Source: Eledone cirrhosa
Lineage: Eukaryota
Reading direction: 5' to 3'
DNA length: 64,000 bases
Assembly (NCBI GenBank): GCA_964016885.1
Contig: OZ024745.1
Coordinates: forward strand, 72,540,001-72,604,000
In this document: positions 20,861 through 50,923 of the stretch, in pieces
Layout of the letters: each line of letters opens with the position of its first letter
Numbering within the stretch: the stretch's first letter is position 1
Notes under the pieces: model-generated
Told to the model about the DNA's origin: nothing
Seen by the model: only the letters and a program-made list of their open reading frames with translations
Databases searched by the model: none
Translations under genes and position numbers: made by a program

Positions 20861-21348
20861 ATTAGAATTGGCCCTCTGAAATAGCAATATATATATGGAT
20901 GTATATATAATGTATTTTGCAATACACTTTATTCTTAATTAAAAGCATTTTGAAGACCGTATGCTATTGTTTTAGAGTAGTGACAAATTCACTTACTTTA
21001 ATCTCAGCAAACAGGGGAGATAAGCCGACAAGGCCTTGTTTCGCTTTTGTTGAAGCTTATCAAGGCTAACTACCCCTCCTGTCTACTGAGATTACTGATG
21101 TTATATTCTTATAGAATTCTAGTAAATAATCAGGAACTGATTATACAGAGCGATTGTTGGTCAGGCAGAAATTAAAAATTAGAATTGGAGCTCTGAAATA
21201 GCAATATATATATGGATGTATATATAATGTATTTTGCAATACACTTTATGCTTAATTAAAAGCATTTTGAAGACCGTATGCTATTGTTTTAGAGTAGTGA
21301 CAAACTCACTTACTTTAATCTCAGCAAACAGGGGAGATAAGCCGACAA
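20861..21348 (-). mobile_element. Retrozyme-like element, ~1.5 copies of a 317-bp unit; HHR at 21023-21067 with U3-A8 core
   Basis: ATTAGAATTGG at 20861 and 21178; minus strand AGCC TTGATAA GCTT CAACAA AAGC GAAA CAAGGCCTTG TC GGCT. Confidence 0.8.
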
Positions 21349-22839
21349 TATGGTGGCTGCCAACTCGTTTTCGAGTACGGCCACTACTTTATATCCATGT
21401 AGGAAAACCCCTACCGATGCGCTGAATGAGTGTGACTTTTTAGTCCAGCCAGCGACTTGAAAACTCTGGTACAAACACTACACTTGTGACAATTATTGAC
21501 ACATAGTGCTGGGTCCATGGTACCATGTGACGACAAGTGCAGAGAGATCTCCAGATATAAAGCAATGCCTGTGCCGTGAAGCTTTTATAGTGAGCACATC
21601 CATCTAGTGTTTAGTGATCTACACGATAAAGGCACCCAGTACACGCTTTAGGGTTTGGTGATTGGAAGAATATCCAGCTCTAGAAACACACATATATATA
21701 TATATATATATATATATATATATAAATCTCTCTCTCTCTCTATATATATATATATACCCCTCTAATTCTCCCACACTATTGTAGAGTTTCCATCATTGCA
21801 CATCTTCCCTCTTACTCACATTATCTGTTCATCTCTCACTCTTCTAAATGTCCTTGTATCTTATCTGGTACTCATCTGTCTGCCTGATTGGTATCTTGCC
21901 AACAGCTGAATATATCTCTCCCACATATATATTTATCTCTCAATTCCATTTCGCTTTACAATTCTCTATTGGTATAGTCACTGCATTTGATTCGACACTG
22001 CATTTTGTCACAACGATATTCTAGAATTTTGTCTCTCGTCTTTTTACCATTTTTTTGTTACATGAGAAGACGGAAGCACTTAACAAACATACCCTTGGTG
22101 TTGAGGGTTGTTCTATCTACGGGGTGTATAATAACCCCGCAGTGACGCCCCCCCCCCCCCAATTGGCAATTTTTATTGTTTATTTATAATTGTTAAATGT
22201 TATTACACACTTCCATTTAACCCCCCCACCCCTCCTCCTCTATCGCATGTCTTCTAACGTCCCATTTCTTGTTCGTCCTTGTGGCAAATAAAGAAATCTA
22301 TCTCTTCCTCTCATATTATCATCCCACCTATATTTCACTGTCTGCTAGCGTGGCTGCCTGACAAATAACTACCTCCCTTTCTCTCTCACTCACCTATGTA
22401 TCAATCCAAGCGATCTCTTGTTATAATACATTTTCTCTTTTATACCCGTCTCACCACAACCATTGCTTGCTCTTTACACATTTCAATAGTATGATGTAAA
22501 AGGGTAAACATGCCACCTAAAAGAAATGAGACGTGACTTATATACTTATATATATATATATATATATATATATATATATATATATATATATATATATACA
22601 TAATTGGGGAGGGCGAGAGAGATGGAGCGGATGACAGTGGGAGTTCGGCGGTTCCACGTTCGGACCATATCCATGTGGTTGTGTTCATTATCTATAGAGT
22701 TCATTCTATTAGTCGATAAATTGTTAATGTATGTCTTTAAGAAGGGTTTAACACGGCATATTTTTAACGGTATATTTGCTTTAGTGTCAGTCATTAAATT
22801 AAATTAATTCAACAGTTAAACACACATAGGAATAATAAG

Positions 22840-23335
22840 GTTGTTACCAAAGAGCCAGAAGATTGACAAGTCAACCCTAAGTATGACTAGTAGCACTAGG
22901 AAAGCCATGAACGACACCTCACCTTTTAAACTTTGATTTTAAAAGTAGGTTTATAATTATTAATTTTCATTAAACTTCCGTAGCCGTCTCGGTGGCCTAG
23001 TTGGGGGGAATCGTAGACGTGGGTGAACTTGGTCTGAAGTTCGATCCTGGTTGGGAGTAGGGTTCCCGGTAAACCTTTTCAGTTTTTTTCGATGGGATGT
23101 AAAATAAAAACTGAAACAGGTTACATGTACCTCTTGACCAGGATTGAAACCAAGACCAGGATCTCCACCGTCTCTAGTACTTGCCGCTGAAGGTCTACTG
23201 AATGTTCATACTTATAAACCTGCTTTCAGAATTTTCAATACAAAATGATGTGGTGTCGTTCATGTCTTTCTTAATGTTGTTGCACCTGCTTCGGGTCGAC
23301 ATCTAAATCATTTGGGTGTTCCATAAACTACATCT
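22840..23335. repeat. ~500-bp imperfect palindrome (foldback/MITE-like) with tRNA-like arms
   Basis: GAAAGCCATGAACGACACC vs GGTGTCGTTCATGTCTTTC; AGTAGGTTTATAA vs TTATAAACCTGCT; GTTCGATCCTGGT vs ACCAGGATTGAA; centre near 23090. Confidence 0.6.
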
Positions 23336-23762
23336 TTGTTTTGGTTCTCATCTATCTAGACTATATTTTTCCAGTAATCCATGTCTCATTTCTGCCGCAC
23401 CTCAATTCGCCCCCCTCTCTTTCTCTCTGTGATATTTGAATCTACTATGATTTGGGCTTACCTTATACATATATATATATATATATATATATATGTGTGT
23501 GTGTGTGTGTGTGTGTGTGTTGGCATGTCAGTTAGATTCAAACTTATACTGTATATACTTTATATACATTATAAACTCTTTTTAAAAAGAATTGTCCTCA
23601 TTTTTTCAATAATGTCCTTTTGACGAATCAAAGAAAGGAAAATTAAAAGAAAAACAGACCCTAAAATATGTTTTCCGTGCTATTTCCAACTTCACCTTTT
23701 CTCTATAACCACTGCTTGGCTTGGTATAGAACCTTACTTCCCTTTTCAAATATATATATATA

Positions 23763-49452: not shown

Positions 49453-49769
49453 TATATATATATATATATATATATATATATATATATATATATATATGAG
49501 AGAGAGAGAGATAGAGGATACCTGAGTGAAATCGGGGGTAACCACAATAAATAAGGTACTCAATACACGATTACAGTGAAAACATTCCTGATGATTTATT
49601 ACTAATGTAATAGTTGTAGTCCTGTAGAAGTCATGTCTATATTAAATTTTCGTTGTATATGTTAAAACGTGATATGTGTGTGCGTATATATGCTTGTGCA
49701 TATATATATATATATATATATATATATATATATATATATATATATATATATATATATATATATATATAT

Positions 49770-50344
49770 GAATGTATATATAGTATATCTGGCGATATAC
49801 TGTATGTTTAATTAAAAACATTTTGAAGACTTTGCGCTATTATTTTAAAGTAGTGAATATGTCACTTACTTCTTTTTTCAACAAGAGAAGGGAGATAAGC
49901 TGACAGATCTGTTTCACACCATTGGTGTTCATCAGAGCTTAGCAATCGCCGACCTTTGTTGAAAATGATAGACGCTGGATTCTTATAGAATTCTAGTAAT
50001 AATCAGGAACTGATTATACAGAGCGATTGCCGGTCCAGCAAAAATTGAAAATTAGGATTGGTGCTCTGAAATAGTGATGTATACATGAATGTATAGTATA
50101 TTTGGCGATATACTGTATGTTTAATTAAAAACATTTTGAGGACCTTGAGCTATTATTTTAAAGTAGTGACTATGTCAGCTTATCTCCCTTCCCTTGTTGA
50201 GAAAAGAAGTAAGTGACATAGTCACTACTTTAATATAATAGCGTAAGGTCTTCAAAATGTTTTTAATTAAACATACAATATATTGCCAGATATACTATAC
50301 ATACATTCATGTATAAATCGCTATTTCAGAGCACCAATGCTAAT
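49770..50344. mobile_element. Retrozyme-like element (317-bp unit, minus strand) with inverted arm from 50177; HHR at 49896-49941
   Basis: GAATGTATA at 49770 and 50087; minus strand TAAGCT CTGATGA ACACC AAT GGTGT GAAA CAGATCTG TC AGCTTA. Confidence 0.88.
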
Positions 50345-50830
50345 ATATATATATATATATATATATATAACTGTTTCTAGTATTGGCACAAGGCCAACAA
50401 TTACCCAGTACATTACTGGTACTTTATTTTATCGACCCCATAAGGATGAAAGGCAAAGTTAACCTCGGCGGGATTTGAACTCAGAATGGCAAGGGCCGTA
50501 ACTCTATGCGTCGAAGCATGGCGTCCGACCCTCTACCGATACTGCCAATATATAACGAAGGAAGTGTGGTAAGGAACCAAATGGAGCATAACGCCTCCAG
50601 ATTTCTTTTTCGCCTGCTTTCTACCTAGCCTAATTTCATACACACTCCTTAGAATTTGGTGTATAGAATTCACTTTCAACGCTTGACCGGCTCCACCAAC
50701 TCCCTCATTGTTCTACAGGAAAGTTCAGCCACCCCCACCTCCCGCCCACCGCCATGAAAGATTTAATTGTGTTTACAAGAAATGTTGATCAATCCTTTTG
50801 ACAACTACGATCTTCCAATATAAGGAATTA

Positions 50831-50923
50831 CCCCTTGAAAAGTTCGGCTATTTATTACCACACCAAAAATTCTAATTTAGTCCAGAAATAGCCGTCGAAA
50901 CGGCTTGAGCTCTGCCGTCGGGG
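50831..50923 (+). ncRNA. Complete family F1 hammerhead, U3-A8 core, long stem II
   Basis: CCCC TTGAAAA GTT CGGCTATTT...AAATAGCCG TC GAAA CGGC TTGAGCTCT GCCG TC GGGG; decayed minus copy at 45660-45750. Confidence 0.75.

Follow-up and report, generated by a model that had tools for sequence, protein, structure and literature searches.

A 64,000-nucleotide stretch of the genome of the octopod Eledone cirrhosa (GenBank assembly GCA_964016885.1, contig OZ024745.1, positions 72,540,001 to 72,604,000; referred to here as the window, whose own numbering is used throughout) was found to contain three hammerhead ribozyme motifs in which the pair between core positions 3 and 8 is U3-A8 instead of C3-G8. 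The motifs are very probably genuine type I hammerheads located at the 3' ends (pseudo-long terminal repeats, pLTRs) of Penelope-like retroelements and of their non-autonomous retrozyme derivatives. The feature is real, and compensatory change is shown in one of the families; both the variant and its Penelope context have already been published.

Hammerhead motifs with a U3-A8 pair

U3-A8 is used by three of the ten hammerhead motif types examined in the window:

21023-21067, minus strand: A1 motif (family A, subfamily A1), type I hammerhead with core TTGATAA
31823-31858, minus strand: B motif (family B), minimal type I hammerhead with core TTGAAAA
50831-50923, plus strand: C motif (family C), type I hammerhead with core TTGAAAA

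A scan descriptor which leaves positions 3 and 8 free returned the same three intervals as a preliminary description of this DNA, and each of the cores was recovered within a complete type I hammerhead, with three helices arranged round a NUGANNA/GAAA/NUH core and open at helix I. A G10.1-C11.1 pair and a GUH triplet are common to all three. The A1 motif (U3 at 21063, A8 at 21058) has helices I, II and III of 4, 4 and 5 bp and a GUC triplet, its helix III being a loopless palindrome of 10 nt, and its cut site is predicted between 21027 and 21026. The B motif (U3 at 31855, A8 at 31850) is built of helices of 3, 4 and 2 bp with a GUA triplet and carries a palindromic 4-nt insert in helix III. 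The C motif (U3 at 50835, A8 at 50840; GUC triplet) has a 4-bp helix I, a long helix II and a stable helix III of 4 bp beyond A15.1-U16.1, with a palindrome within its loop. No BLAST similarity around the motif was found among A1, B and C, and their assignment to three different families therefore stands.

The 3-8 contact is a tertiary Watson-Crick pair, of which the U3-A8 form is reported in the literature to be active. Several natural hammerheads have been described in which C3-G8 covaries to U3-A8, with Przybilski and Hammann, 2007, cited for their activity in vitro (Perreault et al., 2011; PMC3088659). A dedicated descriptor applied to Penelope elements gave ~1,300 U3-A8 matches in Schistosoma mansoni beside ~2,000 canonical minimal motifs, and the accompanying supplement holds the same heptamers, UUGAUAA and UUGAAAA (Cervera and de la Pena, 2014; PMC4209133). 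U3-A8 is thus a known natural variant, as the preliminary description had it. Its further argument that searches limited to CUGANGA would miss these motifs is true but not new, given the descriptor of 2014. The motifs resemble those of the S. mansoni element Cercyon (PMC4209133) in their type I topology, palindromic helix III, predicted dimer activity and heptamers. Unlike the motifs presented in that paper, they come from an octopod (the mollusc rows seen in its supplement, Lottia and Crassostrea, are C3-G8); A1, B and C lack an extra unpaired nucleotide between A9 and 10.1, save for the internal loop of C; C has a stable monomeric helix III; and A, B and C are without a linked open reading frame (ORF). 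No report of U3-A8 hammerheads in octopods was found in the literature searched, which included the giant squid paper with its 235 Rfam hammerhead 1 loci; the work of Lunse et al. on Penelope hammerhead variants may cover them.

The motifs are far more frequent than expected by chance. A strict descriptor gave four matches (three U-A and one C-G) against a mean of 0.067 of any kind per shuffle, and no U-A match occurred in 60 local dinucleotide shuffles. A tighter descriptor (4 Watson-Crick pairs in helix II and a perfectly palindromic helix III), composed after the motifs were known, returned A1, B and the A1 homolog A2 described below, with no match across 1,740 shuffles. With a relaxed descriptor, 18 matches scored at least 9 (14 C-G, 3 U-A, 1 A-A) compared with 1.79 expected (0.21 U-A), and three U-A matches were reached in none of 200 shuffles. 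A Watson-Crick 3-8 pair is present in 17 of these 18 matches but in 30% of chance matches. As copies are not independent, the tally was also taken by family, giving nine paired (6 C-G, 3 U-A) and one mismatched. Lowering the cut-off to 7 gave 28 matches where 6.2 were expected, 23 of the 28 having a Watson-Crick 3-8 pair, which marks the lower-ranked matches as noise.

Compensatory changes in family A

The preliminary description had compared the cores with the textbook consensus only; homologous C3-G8 subfamilies serve as the test here:

20857-21348, minus strand: A1 insertion, a 317-nt repeat present in ~1.55 units and ending 3' in (TA)n
49896-49941, minus strand: A2 motif (family A, subfamily A2), hammerhead homologous to A1 with the canonical C3-G8 pair
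49760-50346: A2 insertion, with an inverted arm
23762-25856, both arms: A3 (family A, subfamily A3), retrozyme-like array with (TA)n at both ends

A2 is 74% identical to A1 over 296 nt, and A3 is more distant within the family (62-67% identity; C3-G8). The plus-strand array of A3 (24224-25856) consists of 5.3 units of 310 nt which are 100% identical and bear five hammerheads; together with an inverted truncated arm at ~23762-24223 it holds six C3-G8 hammerheads. The array looks like a very recent rolling-circle insertion, the identity of its units being possibly an assembly artefact instead. The 3-8 pair is Watson-Crick throughout, U-A in A1, B and C and C-G in the homologs A2 and A3. With regard to a possible tertiary contact between loops I and II, helix I of A1, A2 and A3 is extended and interrupted by a bulge or an internal loop at 4-6 bp from the core, an extension which B lacks.

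Seven of the 14 pairs differ between A1 and A2, and all seven are double compensatory changes, the 3-8 pair included; the unpaired core bases are identical (9/9). Given the divergence observed in the flanks (45 of 231 sites), all 14 pairs have a probability of 0.003 of staying Watson-Crick (0.02 with G.U counted as a pair). For the 3-8 pair, breakage would be ~20 times as probable as compensation (0.34 vs 0.016). The comparison shows that selection acted on the predicted hammerhead fold in the family A lineage. As the outgroup A3 has C3-G8, U3-A8 is by parsimony derived in A1, and on this branch the aligned sequences show C3-G8 replaced by U3-A8 together with six further compensatory pair changes, the core being untouched. 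Unlike the examples presented by Perreault et al. (PMC3088659), the swap is seen here within a single genome, where two homologous subfamilies of one repeat can be compared and a third serves as the outgroup. It was presumably near-neutral, with a U3.G8 wobble as the probable intermediate and AT-biased mutation in its favour; a natural variant having U3 with G8, which could plausibly be that step, is mentioned in PMC7151607.

Two of the five family A 5' ends lie close to the predicted cleavage site, at -5 (21348, the A1 insertion, which starts 5 nt upstream of the cleavage site of its partial unit) and at -4 (50173), and the remaining three lie between about +13 and +56. The two near ends were not accepted as evidence that cleavage occurs in vivo, since both carry bases from upstream of the site and one is a microhomology junction.

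Carrier elements and other repeats in the window

The insertions terminate in (TA)n, often with an inverted truncated arm. Their tails are one-sided, one side ending near +140 and the other at +165 to +170 in family A, and at about +21 and +100 in family C (three two-armed insertions). Tandem or inverted truncated insertions with a one-sided tail are the anatomy of Penelope-like elements described by Craig et al. (PMC8557442), a paper which mentions octopus for Naiads. Families A and C have this anatomy (tandem or inverted 5'-truncated copies, one-sided tail, microsatellite target), and B has only the (TA)n flanks. The dispersed truncated copies, some in inverted pairs, are also like those of the Cercyon and Penelope pLTR hammerheads (PMC4209133). 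Family B is one fragment of ~165 nt with the motif near its 3' end. Family C is represented by several pieces:

50549-50939: family C insertion holding the C motif (50831-50923)
45660-45750, minus strand: decayed family C copy with U3-A8 retained
26163-26362, inverted pair: family C 3'-end insertion, ending within helix II, no core
1-59, 518-652, 32195-32339 and 33140-33193: coreless family C pieces similar to 26163-26362

The preliminary description had noted the decayed copy; it does retain TTGAAAA, but lies on the minus strand and not on the plus strand. It has lost one A of GAAA, has substitutions in helix III and fails the type I core test. The core-bearing copies of family C are thus two, both U-A, with too few differences for a test of compensation. 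Perfect hairpins were observed at 32192-32256 and 26163-26283, one of which matches Rfam mir-5881 at 51.5 bits, below the gathering score; they were rejected as microRNAs, being inversion junctions centred in helix III or helix II of family C.

The A3 array fits the retrozyme definition given by Li et al. (10.64898/2026.07.22.740005), with ~300-bp tandem units, at least two complete hammerheads and no coding capacity. A1, with 1.55 units and one hammerhead, is a retrozyme by homology only. The 310-317-nt units are like those of non-LTR (long terminal repeat) retrozymes (Cervera and de la Pena, 2020, PMC7229834; Li et al.) in being of low GC, tandem and non-coding with one type I hammerhead per unit, and helix II of A3 has a U.U mismatch at its base, as in axolotl HHR_Amex2 (PMC7229834). 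Unlike the retrozymes set out in PMC7229834, A1 has U3-A8, the A1 and A2 monomers are predicted to occlude their own core, and both are known here from sequence.

A trace of coding sequence was found with a sister family, H:

46921-47370, plus strand: GIY-YIG endonuclease remnant (family H), with an in-frame stop

A C3-G8 hammerhead of family H lies at 47601, downstream of this broken ORF, which has 2,483 homologs at E ≤0.001. The model of its best homolog, P0001, matched I-TevI (Z 9.5, root-mean-square deviation 2.4, 89 aligned) and then T4 EndoII and UvrC; the match was made on this homolog, not on the window's own sequence, and VIA-align was the sole method to identify the fold. Pfam gave no family for the remnant, nor for 13 of the 150 homologs listed, a PDB sequence search with a 47-sequence profile gave no match, and Foldseek gave none at E ≤0.001. 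No longer form was found among 49 candidates in a word-index search. The Penelope clade may be Neptune-like, a tentative label based on the description of a Cys motif.

The proposed cycle is modelled on those of PMC4209133, PMC7229834 and PMC6765202. Tandem transcripts would self-cleave, as dimers through the palindromic helix III in families A and B and as monomers in family C. The unit-length RNA would be circularised and reverse-transcribed by a Penelope reverse transcriptase/endonuclease supplied in trans, and the copies would be inserted at (TA)n in tandem and inverted arrangement. Selection would act in the replication cycle of the element and not for the host, so that most of the individual copies here are probably dead insertions.

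Further canonical hammerheads, which amount to five more motif types and of which several lie in inverted pairs, and two other repeats were recorded:

46052-46125, 47988-48053 and 47776-47841: canonical C3-G8 type I hammerheads, likewise missed at the Rfam gathering threshold
19849, 40364-40434, 20103-20216, 47601 and 49388: canonical C3-G8 type I hammerheads, none found at the Rfam gathering threshold
46150-46340: abundant ~190-nt repeat, with copies at 11382, 16219, 35917, 36809, 39720, 41893, 50363, 56095 and 60388
2966-4719, minus strand: long interspersed element (LINE) reverse transcriptase remnant (Pfam RVT_1)

The hammerheads at 20168-20216 and 24441-24483 have nearly the same helix II in flanks which cannot be aligned, possibly a case of ribozyme swapping between families. 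The ~190-nt repeat is presumably similar to a short interspersed element with a tRNA-like head. The best named relative of the LINE reverse transcriptase is from Argonauta hians (59% identity), second among the 120 matches listed, most of the others being at 40-47%.

Strength of the assignment and alternative readings

Several points weigh against reading the motifs as hammerheads of Penelope-type elements. The DNA is AT-rich (GC 0.21-0.40 across 2-kb windows), and in such DNA chance U-A matches are ~4 times commoner than C-G ones (0.21 vs 0.055). B is the weakest of the three motifs (relaxed score 9.0), a single copy with a 3-bp helix I, and a mismatched candidate scores 10.9 where ~0.9 chance matches are expected at 10 or more:

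62981-63056, plus strand: hammerhead-like candidate with mismatched A3.A8, score 10.9

This A-A candidate (at 62986) was set aside as a probable chance match, as was a U-A candidate at 43460 (8.7; 3.5 chance matches at 8 or more), both being judged from context with no homolog search; a U-A candidate at 19218 (score 7.6) is probably due to chance too. The preliminary claim that positions 3 and 8 changed together stands for family A, with its paired homolog and seven of seven compensatory changes. It does not extend to B (one copy) and C (two U-A copies), for which BLAST found no C-G homolog in the window. As the window offers a paired C3-G8 homolog for family A only, U3-A8 may have fewer than three independent origins.

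No motif attains the Rfam gathering score. At that threshold the whole window gave no match, every hammerhead being missed, canonical ones included. In a whole-window search by E-value, the best 150 of 239 matches contain no hammerhead and are mostly microsatellite hits to microRNA models. The top match of both A1 and A2 is Hammerhead_HH9 (RF02275, clan CL00010), with the core aligned in register, but at 23.9 bits (E 3.3e-4 in a 131-nt search) and 22.5 bits (local search) against a gathering score of 52; B and C have no hammerhead match at E ≤10. As the canonical core of A2 falls below the threshold too, this failure bears on the family models and not on the ribozyme class.

Folding predictions are uneven. 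The hammerhead is the predicted minimum-energy fold of the A1 dimer and the C monomer (gap 0.0). It is predicted to lie 4.8 kcal/mol above the free fold in the A1 monomer, 2.8 kcal/mol per ribozyme above it in the A2 dimer and, for B, 9.5 kcal/mol above it in the monomer and 4.2 per ribozyme in the dimer. Metazoan Penelope hammerheads are reported to be weakly active in vitro even as dimers (PMC4209133), and on that account 'functional' may mean slow. Selection on the putative fold is also not equal to transcription or cleavage of these copies, most of which are truncated insertions and one decayed. The family C tail of ~80 nt exceeds the 30-40 bp given in PMC8557442. No reverse transcriptase or endonuclease ORF adjoins A, B or C, tblastn with the 150 listed homologs having matched only 46721-47370; as a reverse transcriptase and a GIY-YIG endonuclease are not present in cis, A, B and C are filed as Penelope-type ends or non-autonomous derivatives and not as autonomous elements.

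It is possible, though less likely than not, that B and C inherited U3-A8 from one old Penelope lineage, which would leave two origins or make the pair a deep clade marker shared with Schistosoma Cercyon. B and C have the heptamer TTGAAAA and the G10.1-C11.1 pair in common, both end no more than ~21 nt from the cleavage site, and the motif S. mansoni(4) in the supplement of PMC4209133 has the same heptamer. However, B and C have no alignable similarity, A1 shows that the swap can arise inside a family, and the same supplement pairs a C3-G8 motif of S. japonicum, similar in helix II, with a U3-A8 motif of S. mansoni.

More tentatively, family A may carry an off-switch, which is an addition to the Penelope-type hammerhead explanation and no replacement for it. 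In the monomer or circle, the segment 2.x-N3-U4-G5 would pair with the 5' arm of helix III (OFF), and in tandem transcripts two units would join by way of their palindromic helix III (ON). Such a switch would tie position 3 to 15.4/16.4 as well as to 8, and the change from C3 to U3 would have had to be matched at four positions (3, 8, 15.4 and 16.4). The 5' arm of helix III complements 2.x-G5 exactly in both A1 and A2, by 6 and 4 consecutive Watson-Crick pairs respectively, and with C15.2 fixed such an arm is unique among 256 (A1) and 64 (A2) possible palindromes. The two pairs that differ show compensation (N3:15.4 is U-A or C-G, 2.1:15.5 is C-G or U-A), for which the probability under independent evolution, computed after the fact, is 0.0014. 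The first four pairs have a predicted pairing probability of 0.95-1.0, the modelled gap to the hammerhead in A1 drops from 4.8 kcal/mol in the monomer to 0.0 in the dimer, and the motif at 20173 has a 3-pair version. According to PMC7229834, the ribozyme is predicted to stay unblocked in most metazoan retrozyme circles, and how it is kept from cutting there is stated to be unknown.

On the other side, the pattern was spotted after folding and in two sequences only, seven of the ten motifs examined (A3, B and C included) have runs of 0-2 pairs, and the A2 dimer is still predicted to be OFF. ViennaRNA ignores tertiary contacts and Mg2+, and when arms are ranked by energy gap, 6 of 256 (A1) and 7 of 64 (A2) do at least as well as the natural arm. 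The short direct repeats could also have been homogenised by template switching between them, with no selection involved. As the alternative helix is absent in B and C, it cannot explain U3-A8 there and was rejected as a general cause of the pair. No description of such an alternative conformation was found in the literature searched.

It is very improbable that the U3-A8 motifs arose as chance matches or by two separate mutations during the decay of dead repeats: the genome is AT-rich, C-to-T and G-to-A are common transitions and B is a single weak copy, but such matches occurred in 0 of 60 and 0 of 1,740 shuffles, U3-A8 is common to two diverged family C copies and A1 has seven compensatory changes with no broken pair, so that this reading is largely refuted for A1 and C.

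With U3-A8 Penelope hammerheads already published, the claim of the preliminary description matters little by itself; the present motifs add a cephalopod example. As Rfam thresholds miss all the motifs here, ribozymes are undercounted in such genomes. The A1, A2 and A3 trio is a natural homologous set for testing of the 3-8 pair. If the alternative helix is real, local self-pairing would explain how retrozyme circles of animals can remain intact, and this self-protection would be testable with a 45-nt RNA.

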